From positions 386,427 to 415,016 of the forward strand of contig NZ_BAABRU010000004.1 in the NCBI RefSeq assembly GCF_039545135.1: 28,590 nucleotides of DNA. Direction: 5' to 3'. Numbering within the stretch: position 1 is the stretch's first letter; the number at the start of each line of letters is the position of its first letter. Below are positions 4,855 through 28,590 of the stretch, piece after piece. A model generated the notes under the pieces. The model was not told where the DNA came from and did no database searches. It worked only from the letters and a program-made list of their open reading frames with translations. The DNA is from Herpetosiphon gulosus (GTDB lineage: Bacteria > Chloroflexota > Chloroflexia > Chloroflexales > Herpetosiphonaceae). A program made the translations under genes and the position numbers.

Positions 4855-5391
4855 TTAGGTTTTACCTTTGGCTCCATCGTTGGGCATGGTCTTTTTGAAA
4901 AAGCTATTGGCCGCCGTGTGATAGATGATCACACCCTCAGGCTGCATAAAGCCAGCAACCATCCGACTACCATTCAGCCGCAAATCTTCTAAGCATGCAT
5001 CAATTTTGGCAGTATCAAAAATGCCATCGTAGAGCACCGGCACAACCTCGCAGCAAGCAGGGCGATTCGCATCATTCCAACGCGATGTATTGAACAAGGC
5101 AAAACGCCGTTCGTTCAGCCCATATTGACGCTTGCCAACACGGTGACCAAACCATTCGCCATGATGCGTACCAACCCCTAATTCAAGCAAGGCATTGTGG
5201 TTGGCGGCAACCCATGCTGCAAAGCCATAATTATCGTTCTCCACAGTCAGCCATTGACTACGACTGCCAGCCCGAATGTGGCCTTGTTCGTTAATTGCAA
5301 TACAGGCGTTTGTGCCGTCAATTTTCTCGGTCACAATCACTTGGCGCGAAAGCCGCGCAATTTTGGGAAACGCCACAAACTCATCACTCAT
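4855..5391 (-). CDS. RNA-ligase-like nucleotidyltransferase (KxDGxN motif I)
   Basis: 'FPKI...VTEKIDGTNACIAI' carries the covalent nucleotidyltransferase motif I (K-x-D-G-x-N) in the context typical of Rnl2-type RNA ligase domains. Size is 178 aa. SD GAGGTG lies upstream of ATG 5391. Confidence 0.5.
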   Translation of the reverse strand: MSDEFVAFPKIARLSRQVIVTEKIDGTNACIAINEQGHIRAGSRSQWLTVENDNYGFAAWVAANHNALLELGVGTHHGEWFGHRVGKRQYGLNERRFALFNTSRWNDANRPACCEVVPVLYDGIFDTAKIDACLEDLRLNGSRMVAGFMQPEGVIIYHTAANSFFKKTMPNDGAKGKT

Positions 5392-5482
5392 CGTTCACCT
5401 CATTTGCTGGGATGGTCAATTTAACATTGCCTAGCATAATCATAATTATTTGGGGCGTAATCAGTCGCAAGGAGTGGATTTT

Positions 5483-5533
5483 AACAAAAAGCCCCTCTCC
5501 CGCCGCAGTGGGAGAGGGGTTGGGGTGAGGGAA
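5483..5533 (-). terminator. htpG terminator formed by a half-copy of the GC-rich palindromic element
   Basis: Hairpin 'CCCCTCTCCC'-GCCGCAGT-'GGGAGAGGGG' (5492-5519) plus 'TTGGGGTGAGGGA'. On the - strand it is followed by the T-tract complementary to 'AACAAAAA' at 5483-5490. It lies 8-50 nt downstream of the htpG stop. Confidence 0.6.
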
Positions 5534-5540
5534 CCCAGAC

Positions 5541-7415
5541 TTATTGCTTTTTGGTTGCGGCAGCAATCAAGGCATGCACGCCGCTGATCAACTCGCTAGG
5601 GTTGGGATGTAAGCCTTCGCCCAACAAGGCTGTGCCATACAATTGTTGCACCGCAACGTTGAACAATTCGGCTTGATCTGGCTCGTCGAGCAGAGCTGCC
5701 AAGTTGTGCACGATCGCGTGGCGTGGGTTGAGTTCAAGAATCCGGCTTGGCACGCTATATTCTTGGCCCATCATGCGCCGAATGCGATCCATATCGCGGC
5801 CAAAATCATCGCTAGGCGCGGCCAAACGCACCGGGTTGCTACGCAGCAACTTTGAGCCACGCACTTCGCTGATTTGCTCGCCCAATAATTCTTTGATCCG
5901 GTCGCCAAGCTGACCGAGAGTAGCTGCTGAGAGCGAGCCTTCTAGCTCAACATCGTCGCCGGCAATATCGGCATCATCGACTGAGCGCAATTTTTTGCCT
6001 TGGAAATCGCGCAAGCTGGAAATGACAAAGCTATCGATCGTTTCATGCATCAATAGCACTTCGTAGCCGCGTTCGTTGAAATAATCGAGGTGCGGCGAAC
6101 GCCGAGCGGTTTCCACATTGTCGGCAATCACATAATAAATATCTTCTTGGCCTTCTTTCATACGCTCGACATACTCGCTAAGCTTGGTCAAGCCCTCGCC
6201 GTTAGTCGAGTGGAAGCGCAACAGTGGCTCGATTTGGCTGCGCGTGCCAGGATCGGTGACCAAGCCTTCTTTGAAATATGGCCCAAATTCGCGCCAAAAA
6301 TCAGCAAATTTTTCGGCATCATTTTCGGCCAAGGTTTCAATTTCTTTGGTAATTTTGTTGGTAATAATTTTGGCAATTTGGCGTAATGTGCCGCTGCTCT
6401 GCACGGTTTCGCGCGAGACATTCAACGGCAAATCTTCCGAATCGACCACACCTTGGACAAAGCGTAGATGCTTGGGCAACAATTCTTCGTTGCGCTCTTG
6501 AATGAGCACCTTGCGTGAATAAAGCTTCAAGCCTGGATCAGGAATTTGGCGCATCATGCCTTGCTCACGTTTGGAGGGCAAGAACAAAATTGCGTGCAAA
6601 TCGACCGGAGCATCGGTGCTAATGTGAACCGTGCTCAGTGGCTCATTGAAATCCATCGTAGTTTGGCGATAGAAATCATTATATTCTTCTTGGGTAACTT
6701 CGCGTGGCTGCTTGCGCCAAAGCGCCGTGCGTTGGTTGAGCACCTTCTTTTCGTCGCCCTCAGCCGAATAAATTGGGAAGGCCACAAAATTGGAGTGTTG
6801 GCGCACAATTTGGTCAAGCTTCCAGCGTTCGGCATATTCTTCGGCATCTTCTTTGAGCACGATTTCGATCGTCGTGCCACGTTCGCTGCGTTCGGCGGCT
6901 TCCAAGGTGTAGGTTGCTTCGCCGCACGATGTCCAGCGCCAAGCAGTTGCATCGGGCTGATACGACAACGAGGTGACCCGCACTTCATCGGCAGCCATAA
7001 ACACCGAGTAGAAGCCTACCCCAAATTGCCCAATAATTTCGCTGCTATTGGTTGGGTTGGCTTCGCCCAATTTTTGCAAAAAGGCCTTTGCGCCTGATTG
7101 CGCCACCGTGCCCAAATTCTTGATCATATCATCACGGGTCATGCCAATACCTGTATCGCTGATCCGAATGATCCGCGCATCTTTATCGGCTTCCAGCGTA
7201 ATCGCTAATTCAAGCTCAGGGTCGCGCACATCTTGGTTAGTGAGCATCTCAAATTGCACCCGATTCAAAGCATCGGAAGCATTCGAGATTAATTCGCGCA
7301 CAAAAATCTCGCGGTGGGTATACAGCGAGTGAATCAGAATATGCAAAACTTGTTGAATTTCAGCCTGGAATTGAAACTGTTCGCGCTCGTTGGCAACATC
7401 GTGTTGCTCAGCCAT
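5541..7415 (-). CDS. htpG: Molecular chaperone HtpG (Hsp90)
   Basis: N-terminus 'LISNASDAL' ATPase motif, 'ISDTGIGMT' and 'GQFGVGFYS' match bacterial HtpG. It is full length at 624 aa. SD AAGGAG lies upstream of ATG 7415. Confidence 0.95.
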   Translation of the reverse strand: MAEQHDVANEREQFQFQAEIQQVLHILIHSLYTHREIFVRELISNASDALNRVQFEMLTNQDVRDPELELAITLEADKDARIIRISDTGIGMTRDDMIKNLGTVAQSGAKAFLQKLGEANPTNSSEIIGQFGVGFYSVFMAADEVRVTSLSYQPDATAWRWTSCGEATYTLEAAERSERGTTIEIVLKEDAEEYAERWKLDQIVRQHSNFVAFPIYSAEGDEKKVLNQRTALWRKQPREVTQEEYNDFYRQTTMDFNEPLSTVHISTDAPVDLHAILFLPSKREQGMMRQIPDPGLKLYSRKVLIQERNEELLPKHLRFVQGVVDSEDLPLNVSRETVQSSGTLRQIAKIITNKITKEIETLAENDAEKFADFWREFGPYFKEGLVTDPGTRSQIEPLLRFHSTNGEGLTKLSEYVERMKEGQEDIYYVIADNVETARRSPHLDYFNERGYEVLLMHETIDSFVISSLRDFQGKKLRSVDDADIAGDDVELEGSLSAATLGQLGDRIKELLGEQISEVRGSKLLRSNPVRLAAPSDDFGRDMDRIRRMMGQEYSVPSRILELNPRHAIVHNLAALLDEPDQAELFNVAVQQLYGTALLGEGLHPNPSELISGVHALIAAATKKQ

Positions 7416-22000: not shown

Positions 22001-22398
22001 ACACCATGAACTGCCAACCTTATAAACCATTACAACGAGCAATAACAATCACGTTATTTTAGCATTCTAGCAACAACATATTGGAAAAAATTTCAGAACC
22101 CGTACAAGCCACTAATTGCACTTTAGGGGGTGCAGGGGGATGAAAACCCCTTGCGTTCCCCGCCTTGAGGCGGGGCGGAGGGGTGGTGATCATTATAAAT
22201 CCCAAATATTCATAGGCACGAGGCGTTAGCAACCATATTCAACTTTGATTCAAGGAGCATGACAATGATACTAATGCCCTGGATAACTACCCAATTTTAT
22301 TAATCACAGGTAAAAAATTAGGGCTAATGGGCTATGGTCAATTTGGGCTAGGGCTGCGATAGTACCCCTGCATCATTGTTGCCTATTTTGGAGTGTGT

Positions 22399-23409
22399 AT
22401 GCAGGTTGTTCAGTATTGGCTACGGACTAAACGGCGCTGGTTCATTGTCAGTGCCCTGATTTTTTGTTTAGTTGGCTCAGTGGCAGGCCAAGAACCTCAG
22501 GCCTTGGCTGGCGGCAGCATGAATTATCTGCCAGCGGTTATGTTTAATGCCGATTTAGATATTCATAATCGCCAATCGGTAGTGAACTTTTATCAAAATT
22601 ATTATCTCACCTCGATGGCGGTCGATATTGGTTGGACGGGCAACGCCAGCACATGCACGCCTGGCACAACCACCCAAGCGTTCCGCGATACGGTTTTAGC
22701 CCGAATTAATTATTTTCGGCGCATGGCTGGCATGGGCACAGTAACGTTTGATACAGCTTTGAATGCCAAGGCTCAGCAAGCGGCCTTGATGATGAGCCGC
22801 AACCGCACGCTCAATCATTATCCGCCCAGCAATTGGCTGTGTTATACCGCCGAAGGCAACGAGGCTGCTGGCAAATCAAATTTAGCGGCTGGAGTAACCG
22901 CCAATGGCACTGGCGCGATTGGCTTATATATGTCCGATGACAACACGCCCAGCGTTGGGCATCGACGTTGGTTGCTGTATCCGCCGACGCTCAAAATGGG
23001 CACAGGCGATGTCAAAGCCCAAACAGGCACGCTCGATGCTAATAGTTTGTGGGTGGTTGGCAATACTGGCCCACGCCCTGCCACCCGCACCGAATATATT
23101 GCTTGGCCACCAGCGGGCTTCGTGCCTTTTATGAATGCCTACAAACGTTGGTCGTTTAGTTTGCCCAGCGCCAATTTTGCCAATGCCGTAGTGACAATGC
23201 AAAAGAGTGGTCAGCCGCAAGCACTGACAATCGTCTCGCGCAGCGGCGGGATTGCCGATAATACCATTGTTTGGGATGTTACAGGCTATGTTACATGGCC
23301 AGCGCCTGCCAGCGATATCACCTATACTGTGAATGTGAGTAATGTGGTCCAGAATGGCCAAACCCGCTCGTTCAGCTATCAGGTCACCGTGATTGACCCA
23401 AGTCGTTAG
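22399..23409 (+). CDS. Secreted CAP/SCP/YkwD-like domain protein with C-terminal beta-rich extension (paralog 1)
   Basis: Signal peptide 'MQVVQYWLRTKRRWFIVSALIFCLVGSVAG'. 'INYFRRMAGMGTV...LNAKAQQAALMMSRN...LNH' and 'GHRRWLLYP' resemble the YkwD/CAP core. GGAG lies 6 nt before ATG 22399. Confidence 0.55.
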   Translation: MQVVQYWLRTKRRWFIVSALIFCLVGSVAGQEPQALAGGSMNYLPAVMFNADLDIHNRQSVVNFYQNYYLTSMAVDIGWTGNASTCTPGTTTQAFRDTVLARINYFRRMAGMGTVTFDTALNAKAQQAALMMSRNRTLNHYPPSNWLCYTAEGNEAAGKSNLAAGVTANGTGAIGLYMSDDNTPSVGHRRWLLYPPTLKMGTGDVKAQTGTLDANSLWVVGNTGPRPATRTEYIAWPPAGFVPFMNAYKRWSFSLPSANFANAVVTMQKSGQPQALTIVSRSGGIADNTIVWDVTGYVTWPAPASDITYTVNVSNVVQNGQTRSFSYQVTVIDPSR

Positions 23410-23484: not shown

Positions 23485-24513
23485 ATGCAGGTGGCATCTA
23501 CTTGGCGGCGCAGCCGCTGGATGAGTTTGGTTGTAACAAGTTTGCTGGTATTTAGTTTGGTGGCCCCACTTGCAGCCCAAGAACCCCAAGCTATTGCTGG
23601 CGGCAGCATGAATTATCTACCAGCCGTTATGTCAAACCCTGAGCTTGATATCAATAACCGCCAATCGGTGGTCAATTTCTATACCAATTTCTACTTACCA
23701 AGCGAAGGCGTGGCCGATGGCTGGACTGGCAGCCAAGCCAGTTGTAACGCTGGCACAACCAGCCAAGCCTATCGCGATGCAATTCTGTTGCGAGTTAATT
23801 ATTTCCGTAAAATGGCGGGCATGGCCGCAGTAACCCTCAACGAGAGCTACAATAGCCAAGCCCAACAAGCAGCCTTGATGATGAGCCGCAACAATAGTCT
23901 CAGCCATAGCCCACCAACGTCATGGGCTTGCTACACCGCCGCAGGTAGAACCGCCGCTGGCAAATCGAATTTATACTTAGGAGCAGTTGGCCCAGGTGCA
24001 ATCACTGGCTATATGCGCGATCCAGGCACAGGCAATGGGGCAGTTGGTCACCGCCGCTGGATTCTTTACCCGCAAAATAAATCGATTGGCACTGGCGATG
24101 TGCCCAGCCGCAGTGGCTATGCTGGCTCAAATGCCCTCTATGTGATTACCAGTGATTTTGGCACAGCCCGACCTGCCACCCGCACCGAATATGTACCTTG
24201 GCCGCCCGAAGGTTTTGTGCCCTATCAAGTCGTTTTTGGGCGTTGGTCATTCTCATTGCATAATGGCAATGTAACCAATGCAACTATTACCATGCGCCAA
24301 GGGAGCACCAATATTCCAGTTACCAAAGAAACTGTTACCAACGGCTATGGCGAAAATACAGTGGTTTGGATTCCGCAGGGCTATAGCAATGGTTCAACCT
24401 GGAATCAACCCAGCGCCGATACCACCTACACCATCACGATTGGCAATGTTGTGGTCAATTCGCAAACCCGCTCCTTCACCTATAATGTAACTGTGATTAA
24501 TCCAAACCAATAG
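23485..24513 (+). CDS. Secreted CAP/SCP/YkwD-like domain protein (paralog 2; by eye roughly half of residues identical to paralog 1)
   Basis: Shared blocks with paralog 1 are 'QEPQAIAGGSMNYLPAVM', 'RQSVVNFY', 'NYFRKMAGM', 'AQQAALMMSRN', 'GHRRWILYP' and 'RPATRTEYVPWPPEGFVP'. GGAGG lies 6 nt before ATG 23485. Confidence 0.55.
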   Translation: MQVASTWRRSRWMSLVVTSLLVFSLVAPLAAQEPQAIAGGSMNYLPAVMSNPELDINNRQSVVNFYTNFYLPSEGVADGWTGSQASCNAGTTSQAYRDAILLRVNYFRKMAGMAAVTLNESYNSQAQQAALMMSRNNSLSHSPPTSWACYTAAGRTAAGKSNLYLGAVGPGAITGYMRDPGTGNGAVGHRRWILYPQNKSIGTGDVPSRSGYAGSNALYVITSDFGTARPATRTEYVPWPPEGFVPYQVVFGRWSFSLHNGNVTNATITMRQGSTNIPVTKETVTNGYGENTVVWIPQGYSNGSTWNQPSADTTYTITIGNVVVNSQTRSFTYNVTVINPNQ

Positions 24514-24594
24514 CCGCTTTCCAAATAAAATCCTCAATTCAGACCGACAGTAGCCACGAGTTGCTGTCGGTCGTGATCTGTGCTGGAGGTGTGT

Positions 24595-25704
24595 GTGGCT
24601 CCCAAAATTGCTTTTATTCGTAAGGGGCGCTGGCCATTGGCGAATGTGCGAACCGCCGAAGCGCTACGTGCCCAATTTCCCGAATATGAACTACGCGAGA
24701 TCGATTTAATTCCCATCATTCGACGCAAGCCTGCACTGGTTGCATTAAATGGCTGGTGGACATTACGTCAATATGCTGGCGACTTGGCGATGCGGCGGCG
24801 CGGCCCCAAAGATGCCTTTTTGATTACCAGCTATATTTTCCATGCTGTCAAGCATTTAGTAGCCGATTTGCTGCGCGATGACGAGTATTTGTTCAGCTTT
24901 CAGATGCAATCGTTGTTTGATGTCAGCGTGCCAAACATTCCTAATTTTGTGTATACCGACCATACCTTGTTGGCAAACCGTCAATATCCAGGCTTTAATC
25001 CAAGCTCGCTCTATCACCCTGAATGGATGAAGTTAGAGCCAAGCATTTATCAAAATGCCAAATTAGTCTTTACACGTTCAAATCATGTTTCGCGCTCATT
25101 GATCGAAGATTACCATTGTGATCCGGCCAAAGTGCGCTGTGTTTATGCTGGCAGCAATGCTCCGGTCATCAGCGAAGCGCCTGATCCAGCGCGTTATGCC
25201 AGCCAAAATATTGTCTATGTTGGGATAGATTGGGAGCGCAAAGGCGGCCCTGAATTGCTACAAGCCTTCGCCCAAGTGCGGGCAGTTTATCCCAATGCCA
25301 CTTTGACGATCATCGGAGCAACGCCGCAAACCAACCAACCTGGGGTTGAGGTCATCGGGCGGATTCCGGTTGAACAATTGCCGCAATATTATCAACGAGC
25401 AGCCGTCTTTTGCATGCCCACCAAACTTGAGCCATTTGGCATCGTTACGATTGAGGCCATGAATTATTGGCTGCCTGTGGTTTCGACCAACCTTGGAGCC
25501 ATGCCCGACTTTATCGAGCATGATCGTAACGGCTATTTGGTCGAGCCAGGCACAGTTGATCAGCTAGCAACTGCTTTGATCAAATTGGTCGGTGATCCTG
25601 AGCGCTGTCGGCGATTTGGGGCACGCAGTGTCGAAATTGCGGCACGTTATCGCTGGGAAGCGGTTGGATCAGCCATGCGCGAGGCGATTCAAAGTTGTAT
25701 CTAA
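24595..25704 (+). CDS. Glycosyltransferase family 4
   Basis: 'VGIDWERKGGPELL' and 'EPFGIVTIEAMNYWLPVVSTNLGAMPDFIEHDRNGYLVEPG' match the Glycos_transf_1 EX7E region. The likely start is GTG 24595, 5 nt after GGAGG at 24585-24589. The track ORF from 24580 is in the same frame. Confidence 0.75.
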   Translation: MAPKIAFIRKGRWPLANVRTAEALRAQFPEYELREIDLIPIIRRKPALVALNGWWTLRQYAGDLAMRRRGPKDAFLITSYIFHAVKHLVADLLRDDEYLFSFQMQSLFDVSVPNIPNFVYTDHTLLANRQYPGFNPSSLYHPEWMKLEPSIYQNAKLVFTRSNHVSRSLIEDYHCDPAKVRCVYAGSNAPVISEAPDPARYASQNIVYVGIDWERKGGPELLQAFAQVRAVYPNATLTIIGATPQTNQPGVEVIGRIPVEQLPQYYQRAAVFCMPTKLEPFGIVTIEAMNYWLPVVSTNLGAMPDFIEHDRNGYLVEPGTVDQLATALIKLVGDPERCRRFGARSVEIAARYRWEAVGSAMREAIQSCI

Positions 25705-25710
25705 TTTGGT

Positions 25711-25745
25711 ATACCGCTAATTTTTAATTAGCGGTATATTTATTC
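25711..25745. terminator. Palindromic hairpin at the GC/AT composition boundary; likely bidirectional terminator
   Basis: 'ATACCGCTAATT'-TT-'AATTAGCGGTAT' is followed by 'ATTTATTCTAATT'. It lies 6 nt after the GT4 stop and immediately before the stop of the - strand island gene. Confidence 0.6.
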
Positions 25746-26618
25746 TAATTCGTAAGAGAGTATTTCAAAATAAATAAATGATAGCCAATTAAGAAAGTTC
25801 TCATTAACTATTCCAAAAAATTCATTAGGATCAACTATTGATCCTGAATCAAAACTCTCATTTTTCCCTGTTAAAAAATGAAAATATTTATTCCTAATAT
25901 TAATAATCATTTTAATAATATGTCTATTAGTTGTTTTTATTTGAGAGTAAGGGGTTTTAGAATACACATTAGCCTCTAATACTTTTTCTATAGTTTTATA
26001 ATAAATTTCACCCCACGAAGGATGTTGAGATAATATATTAAAATCTACTGTAACATCTAGATTTGTGTCTTCTGTAATATCTTTCATAAAATTATCAAAT
26101 ATAGTTAGTTCTTTTTTATCCTTTGCAAAAAAAATTTGTAGTTTTTCAAAGGTTCCTTCAAAATTCTTAGTTCTAGATGCCCACATTAACGGAAGACAAT
26201 AAGATATTCTTTCTAAAATTCTATAGATATGAACAAATGATGATACATGGTTATTTATTGATTTTTGATAAAAATAATGACAAAATTCAAAAAATATCTC
26301 TCTATGAAACATAAAATTCTTTGAACGACTTCTCATTACGGCTTTATCAAATTCTATAATTGTGAATGGATTAATAGAATTTTCAATAATATTCCATGAA
26401 AATCTTTCATTTTTCTTAAAAGGTAAAATGAAATAATTATTCCTTTGTTTTAATATCTTATTAGAGAATTCACATTTAATATCCAAAAATCCAGATAGCA
26501 ATCTAACATTTAATGCCTTATATATAATATTAGATGATATTTGTAACGTAAAAGGTAGTTTATTAGAAATTCTTGGCGTTAGCATTTCTATTGGTGTAAA
26601 TCTTAATTGAATAGACAT
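25740..26618 (-). CDS. Hypothetical protein, partner of the DUF262-like protein (possible HEPN-like or DUF1524-like effector; unassigned)
   Basis: A 292-aa ORF encoded in very low-GC DNA. Its ATG 26618 follows a GAGG SD that overlaps the stop of the upstream gene (8-nt gap). It contains 'IINIRNKYFHF' (R-N-x3-H) and 'SQHPSWGE'. No family is confidently recognisable. Confidence 0.55.
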   Translation of the reverse strand: MSIQLRFTPIEMLTPRISNKLPFTLQISSNIIYKALNVRLLSGFLDIKCEFSNKILKQRNNYFILPFKKNERFSWNIIENSINPFTIIEFDKAVMRSRSKNFMFHREIFFEFCHYFYQKSINNHVSSFVHIYRILERISYCLPLMWASRTKNFEGTFEKLQIFFAKDKKELTIFDNFMKDITEDTNLDVTVDFNILSQHPSWGEIYYKTIEKVLEANVYSKTPYSQIKTTNRHIIKMIINIRNKYFHFLTGKNESFDSGSIVDPNEFFGIVNENFLNWLSFIYFEILSYELE

Positions 26619-26626
26619 TTAAAACC

Positions 26627-27649
26627 TCATTCCATTTCATTTAATAGTGATAGCATTTCTATCTCTTCTTTATTGATAAAATTATTAAAATTACTAATAA
26701 AATAATCAACAGACTTCCTTCTTTGAGAACTTAATCTTATTTTTGATGTATCAAATCCAGAAAACGTTTTCTCAAATTCCTTAACGGTTTGAGAAAAATC
26801 ATTAGGATCAATATTTATTAAGTATTGAAAATTCCTTCTTATCCCGACACAGAATCCTATTAGATTATTAAGATTCTTAAACCATTCCATATTATACTCA
26901 TTATCTACAACCATTTTATATATCAATTTAGTAATTTCATTAAACTCTAAATCATCACTTGTTATATCAGAATTTATTATCTTATCAGTTATTAATTCAT
27001 TCATTTTACTTTCTATTATTTTCTGATTTTCAATATTAGTGGAAGCACTTAAAAATGCAATATATGCATTAATAATATCTGATTTATTAAAAGATTCCTT
27101 TAAATTAGATTTATCTTTTTCGTTTTTTAGCGATAGAGAAAGGTTATCAAAATTATATATATTACCCATCAGTATTTCTATTTGATGTCTAACTGTCATT
27201 GGTCTTTGGCCATTATTTAGTGTAATCATTCTATAGAGTAAATTATCCATCGATTCACAAATTATAATATTAAGAAATATTCTTTTATTTCTATTTACTT
27301 TTTCATTATCTTTAATTCTATCAAGTGTATTTAATCTTTGTATACCATCAAGAATAAAAGCGTTATGTATCTCTCTATTTACATATTCCTCTATTTGGTT
27401 ATCGTTGTAATTATTTATAATGTCAATTTTATCAATAAATGCAATTGTTAGTGGAGGCATAATGCACCCATCAATTATATCCTTTTCTAATCTTTTATAA
27501 AATCTAGCTGATTGTAATTTTCTTTGTATATCCAATTTGTTTATCAATTCAATTAAGTTATCTATAGCAAAACTATAATTTGTAGAACCTGTTATGAATT
27601 TCCCTTTAATTACATCATCATAATCAATAGAAGAAATTTTGATTGACAT
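26627..27649 (-). CDS. DUF262 / ParB-like (GmrS-N-terminal-type, 'DGQQR') domain protein
   Basis: A 340-aa protein. 'KLDIQRKLQSARFYKRLEKDIIDGCIMPPLTIAFI' matches the (P)xYQR...DI..G.PI..I block. 'AFILDGIQRLNTL' matches (I/L)DGQQRLTT. 'YRMITLNNGQRPMTVRHQIE' matches F..lN.G..L...E. GAGGTG lies 5 nt before ATG 27649. Confidence 0.65.
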   Translation of the reverse strand: MSIKISSIDYDDVIKGKFITGSTNYSFAIDNLIELINKLDIQRKLQSARFYKRLEKDIIDGCIMPPLTIAFIDKIDIINNYNDNQIEEYVNREIHNAFILDGIQRLNTLDRIKDNEKVNRNKRIFLNIIICESMDNLLYRMITLNNGQRPMTVRHQIEILMGNIYNFDNLSLSLKNEKDKSNLKESFNKSDIINAYIAFLSASTNIENQKIIESKMNELITDKIINSDITSDDLEFNEITKLIYKMVVDNEYNMEWFKNLNNLIGFCVGIRRNFQYLINIDPNDFSQTVKEFEKTFSGFDTSKIRLSSQRRKSVDYFISNFNNFINKEEIEMLSLLNEME

Positions 27650-27685
27650 AAATTCACCTCATAGTATTTATCTGAATACTTAAAT

Positions 27686-27714
27686 ACTATACACTAGAAT
27701 TTTTATATGTCTAC
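27686..27714 (-). promoter_or_regulatory. Candidate sigma70-like promoter for the island operon
   Basis: On the - strand, TAGACA (-35, complement of 27709-27714) is followed by a 17-nt spacer and TATAGT (-10, complement of 27686-27691). This is about 35 nt upstream of the DUF262 gene's SD. Confidence 0.3.
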
Positions 27715-27744
27715 AGGTTAATTATGTAAATTACGGAGTAAAGG

Positions 27745-28590
27745 CTTAAGATTGTATACTTACGCCTGATGTGAGTTAGGCATCGTTGATGACCGTAAAG
27801 GTAAGCACATCGATCCCAAATCGTGCCCGCAACACCGCTTTCACGACCAAATGCGTCACCTTGCTGGCAATGCGGGTTACCAAGCCTTCCACGGTTTTGG
27901 CCAACAAGCGCTCACTATTGCGTCCGGTATTTTGCAGTTCATGAAACGTCCCTTCGATCCGTTCACGGATCGACCCCAGCAGGGCATCAAATGGAGCGGG
28001 ATTCCGCCGTTGGTTCTGGCGTTTGGCCGTCCAGATGCGATTCTTGGTTGTGGCGCGAACATCGTGTTGCCACCGTTCACCCAGAAACCCTTTATCCGCC
28101 CACACGTCGGCATTGCTGATCTGGTCCAAAATTTCGTCCGCAGCGGCCCGCTCATCGGTATGGGCTGGGACGAGGTCATAGGCCACCGGAATGCCATCGA
28201 GGGTCGTGAGCATGACGAGTTTATACCCAAAATAATGCAGTTTGCGACTGACACAATAGCCATAGCTCGCGCTTCCGGCGAAATCGCTGCGGGTTTTCGG
28301 GCGCGTATAGCCCATCACGGGAATCGGTTTGGTATCAAGGATGACCTGTGGGCAGTCCACCATGGCCCATGACGTGAGCCATGAGCGGCGTAAGGGTTCG
28401 AGCAGACCACACAGGCGGCGGGCATGGCGATTGAATTGGCTTTGGTGGGGCAGGGTTGGAAACAGATCACCATGGGTTGCCCGCAGAAAGCCTAAGAAGC
28501 CGCGTTCGCTGGGAAAGGGGACGAGATCCATCGCCAACAGGATGGTCAGCACCTCGCTTGGCGCGAGGGCTGGCGCAGGCCCTGGGGAAG
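27745..28590 (-). mobile_element. IS982-family (IS5 superfamily) insertion sequence, 3' end and most of the transposase; truncated by the window edge
   Basis: Composition returns to about 55% GC at about 27745. The transposase ORF is at 27776-28590 and remains open to the window end. It contains 'ILDTKPIPV', 'SASYGYCVSRKLHYFGYKLVMLTTLDGIPVAYDLVPAHTDER' and 'WADKGFLG', which match the IS982 DDE blocks (IDSFPIP / GY.A.K..YFYG.KxH / DKGY). The terminal inverted repeat cannot be defined without the other end. Confidence 0.7.
27776..28590 (-). CDS. IS982-family DDE transposase (5' end beyond the window, or GTG start at 28552)
   Basis: See the mobile_element entry. The frame remains open upstream of the GTG at 28552 to the window end. 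Confidence 0.7.
   Translation of the reverse strand, partial: SPGPAPALAPSEVLTILLAMDLVPFPSERGFLGFLRATHGDLFPTLPHQSQFNRHARRLCGLLEPLRRSWLTSWAMVDCPQVILDTKPIPVMGYTRPKTRSDFAGSASYGYCVSRKLHYFGYKLVMLTTLDGIPVAYDLVPAHTDERAAADEILDQISNADVWADKGFLGERWQHDVRATTKNRIWTAKRQNQRRNPAPFDALLGSIRERIEGTFHELQNTGRNSERLLAKTVEGLVTRIASKVTHLVVKAVLRARFGIDVLTFTVINDA

Follow-up and report, generated by a model that had tools for sequence, protein, structure and literature searches.

Near the end of a 28,590-nucleotide stretch of the Herpetosiphon gulosus genome (contig NZ_BAABRU010000004.1, positions 386,427 to 415,016; hereafter the window, in whose own numbering all positions are given) lies a compact cassette of two genes read from the minus strand, and the subject of the present analysis is the second of these, an ORF (open reading frame) whose translation is a protein of 292 amino acids (Table 1), here called the target. 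The cassette occupies a sharply bounded island in which GC (guanine plus cytosine) content drops to 24%, against 51% in the flanks and in the H. gulosus genome, and in all 12 of the loci with target homologues in which this was measured the cassette lies 7–27 points below its surroundings. This foreign base composition indicates that the cassette has been acquired horizontally. The first gene encodes a protein of 340 amino acids that matches DzbA, which together with DzbB makes up the anti-phage system Dazbog (Millman et al. 2022; PADLOC entries PDLC03835 and PDLC03836).

A preliminary description of this DNA had taken the product of the first gene for a DUF262 protein paired with a partner that could not be assigned. 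As no Pfam model, GmrSD_N (DUF262) included, matched this protein at E ≤ 1, the family name did not hold in that form, but the kinship behind it is upheld by the PADLOC DzbA match (E = 6.3e-40, joining residues 3–310 to positions 2–310 of the 393 in the model) and by its DGIQR signature. Alignment with canonical DzbA showed that both share the invariant sequences LDGxQR and LYRM..LN.GQ..M..R.Q.E, and the D, G, Q and R of DGxQR are invariant in seven DzbA-type proteins; for what a DGxQR-type motif does in GmrSD-like proteins we rely on the literature. The pair itself had thus been noticed, but its likely identity as a Dazbog variant had gone unrecognized.

The target protein gave no match in scans of Pfam, NCBIfam, PADLOC, PHROGs or PDB sequences, in agreement with the earlier statement that it had no assignable family. 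The same description had remarked that its RNKYFH sequence fits the consensus of HEPN RNases. In one sequence such a motif is weak evidence, because shuffled versions of the target protein contain RNxxxH in 2.8% and any Rx4-6H in 61% of cases. By an exhaustive HMMER profile search over 1.84 billion representatives we found a family of at least 370 clusters (at 50% identity) at E ≤ 1e-3, 149 of them at E ≤ 1e-30; a word-indexed search had returned just two relatives of the target and three or four of DzbB, and a metagenome scan with a six-sequence alignment four loci. The members are nearly always 280–310 amino acids long and come from Chloroflexota, Acidobacteriota, Patescibacteria (the candidate phyla radiation), Lactobacillaceae plasmids and viral contigs. 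In an alignment of 140 of them, with a median pairwise identity of 26%, from which all conservation counts given here derive, R242 is present in 140, N243 in 137 and H247 in 139 members; R133, E136 and P143 are, like R242, invariant, and G43, E111, F128, Y132, E170, F177, N243, F246, H247 and F268 are at least 90% conserved. Conservation across 140 members at such low identity places the motif beyond chance, and the near-invariance of R, N and H among homologues, which had been proposed as a check on the motif, was found. The N-terminal region behaves differently: the Lactiplantibacillus plantarum member aligns with the target only from residue ~94 on. This 336-amino-acid protein (plasmid NZ_CP035024, positions 6095-7105 of the fetched locus) has the same HEPN domain (hhalign probability 99.8%) behind another, longer N-terminal region, which makes the N-terminal domain a modular element in this family; its cassette is flanked by an IS5 transposase and a type I restriction–modification (R-M) system (HsdR/HsdM).

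To examine the fold, we relied on structure prediction. With a three-sequence alignment the result was unusable (pLDDT, the predicted local distance difference test score, of 39), and with the 140-sequence alignment AlphaFold2 (AF2) gave a confident model (pLDDT 94.8; predicted template modelling score 0.92). In this model the first 100 residues form a small alpha/beta domain and the remainder, residues 101-292, is helical, its four helices interrupted by an 80-residue alpha/beta insert at 150-230 (limits in Table 1). R242 and N243 belong to the final turn of helix 231-246, and the loop that follows begins with H247, so that the HEPN bundle sought around the RNKYFH helix is seen as a four-helix core with an insert, the motif closing helix-3. 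According to a survey of HEPN proteins (Anantharaman et al. 2013, PMC3710099), the families are mutually very divergent, the residue after the motif arginine is usually N, D or H, and a conserved acidic residue in helix-2, typically within Ex3[K/R], lies near the active site; in the target an asparagine follows the arginine, the invariant E136 lies in helix-2 and the insert separates helices 2 and 3. Among the top fold matches in a library of 48,164 chains, genuine HEPN chains were enriched far beyond chance, comprising the HepT toxins 8xdj, 5yep and 7ae2, AbiA, Csm6 (8jbc, 6tug and 4rgp) and Csx1, as well as AF0298, YutE, TTHA0636, the sacsin HEPN domain and 4nqf, with LsoA and RnlA lower in the list. 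Profile searches with hidden Markov models (HMMs) gave sub-threshold signals of the same kind: HEPN_Apea (five members, 0.0055), Ribonuc_2-5A (three, 0.0035) and Csm6 HEPN (two, 0.043) in Pfam; Csx1/Csm6 (best 8e-5), Cas13a and Cas13-ApeA in PADLOC; and, for the family consensus sequences, Abi_C as the best HEPN match in Pfam (E = 1.3). The sole nuclease matched by the family profile among PDB sequences, again below threshold (E = 0.41 over 59 residues), was the IRE1 KEN domain, in which LRNKYHHF stands opposite LRNRYFHF of the family. These signals are weak but convergent on HEPN RNases and, taken with the model, indicate that the C-terminal domain of the target family is a predicted HEPN fold with an intact R-N-x3-H motif and helix-2 glutamate.

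The association of the two genes was assessed by applying local HMMs to the ORFs in all six frames of every fetched locus. In 16 of the 16 loci having upstream sequence, a DzbA-like gene on the same strand immediately precedes the family gene; these loci include metagenome-assembled genomes (MAGs) of Pyrinomonadaceae, Paceibacteria and an unclassified bacterium, L. plantarum plasmids, metagenome contigs and six IMG/VR viral contigs, and in the loci scored canonical DzbB never co-occurs with the family gene. These data show that the HEPN partner is obligatorily paired with a DzbA-like ParB/DUF262 protein. In H. gulosus translational coupling of the two genes is suggested, since the GAGG preceding the target gene overlaps the stop codon of the DzbA-like gene. 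Ahead of the first gene, a GAGGTG ribosome-binding site (RBS) follows two promoter-like sites and precedes the ATG; as such sites are no commoner here than in shuffled sequence, they are listed as candidates only. A terminator scan returned four sites, against 0.5 expected. In one viral contig (IMG/VR UViG_3300022658_000266, positions 1858-2722 of the locus) the family gene is spread over three overlapping frames downstream of an intact DzbA-like gene; this could be a pseudogene or an assembly error, and as a natural ‘partner-less DzbA’ it could bear on the question of toxicity considered below.

Given the identity of the first gene, we compared the target with DzbB. Canonical Dazbog is present in three plasmid loci, from Bacillus cereus, Moritella and Pseudomonas, with DzbA matches of 1e-106 to 1e-150 and DzbB matches of 1e-48 to 1e-74; the matches of canonical DzbB proteins to the DzbB model range from 1e-38 to 1e-74. 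The PADLOC DzbB model gave no match at E ≤ 1 with the target or five close homologues, and weak matches (best 2e-4) in only 2 of the 140 family members; by the criterion of this model the target protein is not a DzbB. Searches of PDB sequences with DzbB and DzbA profiles returned nothing meaningful. Nine residues are invariant in the C-terminal half of six diverse DzbB proteins (F231, Y235, E239, E275, L282, F306, Y325, R328 and H333), and in the hhalign alignment seven of the nine fall on conserved positions of the target family. They make up three motifs: F-x3-Y-x3-E (F128, Y132 and E136 of the target; F231, Y235 and E239 of DzbB), E-x6-[FL] (E170 and F177; E275 and L282) and R-x4-H (R242 and H247; R328 and H333), which are collinear in the two groups and identical in their internal spacing. 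In addition, N243 aligns with DzbB N329, a position that is asparagine in five of the six DzbB proteins, and canonical DzbB itself gave sub-threshold matches to HEPN_RiboL-PSP (0.073) and to HepT-like models around its Rx4H. We take both the target family and DzbB for HEPN proteins that hold the same place in the operon and are probably remote homologues in their C-terminal domain. We regard the cassette as a short Dazbog-like lineage, the partner of which was missed by the Pfam, NCBIfam, PADLOC and PHROGs models tested and can now be assigned to HEPN.

On this evidence we consider it reasonably probable that the target forms the second subunit of a Dazbog-like anti-phage cassette, compact and acquired horizontally, and that it has a small alpha/beta domain at its N-terminus and a HEPN domain at its C-terminus. 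The DzbA-like NTPase would sense phage DNA, possibly modified, as has been proposed for Dazbog, and would then activate or control the HEPN RNase. The HEPN domain would act as a metal-independent endoribonuclease, probably as a dimer like other HEPN RNases, so that the partner would be the effector and the module, read in this way, would cut RNA, not DNA; such cleavage would cause growth arrest or abortive infection. From the literature, Dazbog requires its DUF262 gene, and canonical Bacillus systems behave as abortive-infection systems and are toxic upon expression of a phage cytosine methylase.

Several results weigh against this interpretation. With regard to the fold, a Foldseek search with the model found no PDB match below E = 1 and none in BFVD at E ≤ 0.001 (best 0.13), no HEPN model of Pfam reached threshold for the target, its homologues or the family consensus sequences, and the context of E136 is not of the Ex3[K/R] form. 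With regard to DzbB, hhalign comparisons of the family with one, three or six DzbB sequences gave probabilities of 1.9-3.7% (P ~0.01-0.03), and HMM searches in both directions gave ~5-12 bits; none of 150 column shuffles reached the hhalign score, but 12 of 150 block shuffles did. Homology between the target and canonical DzbB, which the motifs suggest, is therefore not statistically established and we make no claim to it. Finally, the Dazbog discovery preprint records that the dzbB deletion could not be transformed, ‘possibly due to toxicity’, a hint that DzbA may be harmful alone and that its partner may behave like an antitoxin and not as the sole toxic effector.

This last observation underlies the main rival explanation, in which the logic is inverted: the DzbA-like protein, as an NTPase or a DNA-acting nuclease, would be the toxic effector, restrained by the HEPN partner either through protein–protein inhibition or through an RNase activity that cuts the operon’s own transcript, and infection would release it. 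We consider this unlikely. It is true that the preprint lists the dzbB deletion beside deletions of known antitoxins (psyrA, shosA and rmrA), that comparative analyses call ParB-fold domains nucleases (PMC3710099), that the DGxQR motif of the DzbA-like protein is intact, and that the tight translational coupling resembles that of toxin–antitoxin pairs. However, R-N-x3-H and E136 are conserved almost absolutely, which argues for catalytic use of the HEPN site and against a role as a mere scaffold, in known HEPN–MNT pairs the toxin is the HEPN protein, and the remark on toxicity is the authors’ speculation on canonical DzbB, not on the target family. In a further proposal, which we think rather improbable, the HEPN RNase would not be the killer but a catalytic, antitoxin-like governor of a toxic ParB/DUF262 NTPase, for example cleaving the operon mRNA or being switched by the nucleotide state of DzbA, with the same HEPN core in DzbB and the short lineage. 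If true, this would give Dazbog-type HEPN domains a role opposite to that of every characterized HEPN toxin, and would provide a first mechanistic handle on Dazbog.

Two other explanations concern the nature of the partner. The C-terminal bundle might be only superficially HEPN-like, with its conserved R, N, H and E serving to bind a ligand, a nucleotide or DzbA and not for nuclease chemistry, or the cassette might be a toxin–antitoxin addiction module of mobile DNA with no anti-phage role. The lack of an HMM-level HEPN assignment, the existence of non-catalytic, binding HEPN domains (PMC3710099), and the position of the cassette next to an insertion sequence (IS) here and in viral contigs elsewhere in the family are consistent with this; against it, Rx4-6H is lost in the nucleotidyltransferase-fused, potentially substrate-binding HEPN domains and in part of the MtlR family (PMC3710099) but is invariant here, the enrichment of genuine HEPN chains among the fold matches is far beyond chance, and the defence system to which the DzbA-like partner belongs has been validated by experiment. 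We therefore judge this explanation very doubtful. The preliminary description had also offered a split GmrSD of type IV restriction, in which SQHPSWGE followed by NIRNKYF would be a very diverged DUF1524 His-Me finger and the module would cut modified DNA. DUF262 proteins are often paired or fused with DUF1524 in the literature, and the motifs bear some resemblance by eye. However, the H199 column of the 140-member alignment is dominated by other residues (D in 31, N in 27, E in 18 and S in 14 members), in the model SQHPSW falls within the variable HEPN insert and NIRNKYF within helix-3, fold searches and HMM scans of the target gave no His-Me or HNH match, and reviews describe Dazbog without DUF1524. 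This candidate was accordingly rejected, and we now see next to no chance that it applies.

Table 1. The cassette and its immediate surroundings, by position in the window
Feature	Position	Strand	Basis
IS4/IS5-type DDE transposase	27776-28552	-	Pfam DDE_Tnp_1 2.5e-16
AT-rich foreign island, ~2.05 kb, ~24% GC, holding the two-gene cassette only	25705..27760	.	composition profiles
Candidate sigma-70-like promoters, TTTACA-17-TATAAA (27730-27702) and TAGACA-16-TATAGT (27713-27686)	27686..27730	-	sequence, scanner match
Gene of the DzbA-like ParB/DUF262-type protein, 340 aa, first of the operon	26627..27649	-	PADLOC DzbA 6.3e-40
DGIQR of the DzbA-like protein, ParB/DUF262 nucleotide-hydrolysis signature (DGQQR-type)	27335..27349	-	translation
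8-bp intergenic gap; GAGG (RBS) overlaps the DzbA-like stop codon	26619..26626	-	sequence
Gene of the predicted HEPN-domain partner protein, 292 aa, in the DzbB position	25740..26618	-	translation
N-terminal alpha/beta domain, residues 1-100; R39/L41/G43 conserved; variable or replaced in distant members	26319..26618	-	model secondary structure and conservation
Predicted HEPN domain, residues 101-292: helix-1 102-120, helix-2 124-149, insert 150-230, helix-3 231-246, loop, helix-4 264-291	25743..26318	-	
Helix-2 motif F128-V-H-I-Y132-R133-I-L-E136; R133/E136 invariant, E136 the candidate second active-site acidic residue	26211..26237	-	translation and conservation
SQHPSWGE, the earlier His-Me candidate, in the variable HEPN insert, unconserved	26007..26030	-	translation and alignment
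RNKYFH (R242-N243-K-Y-F-H247), Rx4H motif closing helix-3, predicted RNase active site	25878..25895	-	translation and conservation
15-pair hairpin between the convergent glycosyltransferase and target genes, likely bidirectional terminator	25708..25740	.	terminator scan

The cassette sits between a GT4 glycosyltransferase gene and the IS4-type DDE transposase. The latter lies ~125 bp upstream of the cassette, has a host-like GC content of ~55% and occurs once within the window; it may mark an insertion hotspot and not the vehicle of the AT-rich cassette. No direct or inverted repeats delimiting the island were found at its flanks. The glycosyltransferase gene (24580-25704, plus strand) converges on the cassette and shares with it the hairpin at 25708-25740; it has a sub-threshold Pfam match to ‘GT4-conflict’ (1.3e-4; 21.5 bits, where the cutoff is 26), probably a reflection of general GT4 similarity. 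Before it lie tandem paralogous genes for secreted proteins of 338 and 342 amino acids (22393-23409 and 23485-24513, both plus strand), whose N-termini resemble signal peptides and which contain CAP/SCP domains, of the cysteine-rich secretory protein family (Pfam CAP 5e-14 and 1e-16), and the remaining genes of the window are housekeeping genes. Elsewhere, the annotated plasmid loci beside R-M genes comprise one of the target lineage and two of canonical Dazbog, and the neighbours in two MAG loci (L003 and L005) look unrelated to defence. In the Moritella marina plasmid (2292-6362 of locus L008) and the B. cereus plasmid (181-7291 of locus L007), canonical Dazbog lies directly beside pairs of a cytosine-5 methyltransferase and a restriction endonuclease (MvaI/BcnI-type and NgoPII-type). 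As Dazbog is reported to be triggered by a phage cytosine methylase, its position beside such methyltransferases is intriguing and implies that resident methylation must be tolerated. The canonical DzbB on the plasmid of Pseudomonas sp. DY-1 (5065-6252 of locus L009) carries a long (Ala-Pro)n low-complexity tail at its end, and its locus is surrounded by genes like those of filamentous phages (major capsid protein, TspB-related) and by a RelE/ParE toxin–antitoxin pair.

Dazbog has been validated experimentally but is mechanistically unsolved, DzbB has no annotated domain in the sources searched, and in the literature searched we found no paper tying DzbB or Dazbog to HEPN. In the present sister lineage, of at least 370 clusters, a DzbA-like protein is accompanied by one whose HEPN domain is modelled with confidence, and DzbB has the same collinear motifs. 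This leads to a concrete hypothesis, open to test, that systems of the Dazbog type act on RNA, unlike the DNA-cutting DUF262–DUF1524 restriction enzymes. As the partner is not matched by the DzbB model of PADLOC, the lineage would be missed by a detector that asks for DzbA and DzbB matches together. HEPN proteins beside ParB-fold proteins have been known as a general theme since 2013 (PMC3710099), and to specialists the assignment should be useful and not startling.

With GmrSD, BrxU and SspE (DUF262 plus DUF1524) the cassette shares the DUF262/ParB-type NTPase module with DGxQR, a presumed sensor of DNA modification, but differs in having a HEPN partner in place of the DUF1524 His-Me nuclease, so that cleavage of RNA rather than DNA is predicted. 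The HEPN families MAE_28990 and RiboL-PSP-HEPN have been noted in operons with ParB-type genes (Anantharaman et al. 2013, PMC3710099), and here too a HEPN gene lies next to a ParB-fold gene, in those families often with DNA methylase or R-M genes; in contrast, no HEPN_MAE_28990 or HEPN_RiboL-PSP match was obtained for the target or among the 25 most-matched Pfam families of the 140 homologues. [quoted passage not shown] From canonical Dazbog the cassette differs in the length of both products: its second protein has 292 amino acids, against 386-453 in DzbB, being ~100 residues shorter with an unrelated N-terminal region, and its DzbA-like protein has 340, against ~400, is 22-23% identical to canonical DzbA and is devoid of the internal insert. 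Despite these differences, both are adjacent, co-oriented two-gene operons in the order A then B, the first gene of the cassette is clearly homologous to DzbA (6e-40) and has the LDGxQR signature, and the two lineages are alike in being mobile and low in GC, with plasmid loci of both lying next to R-M genes.
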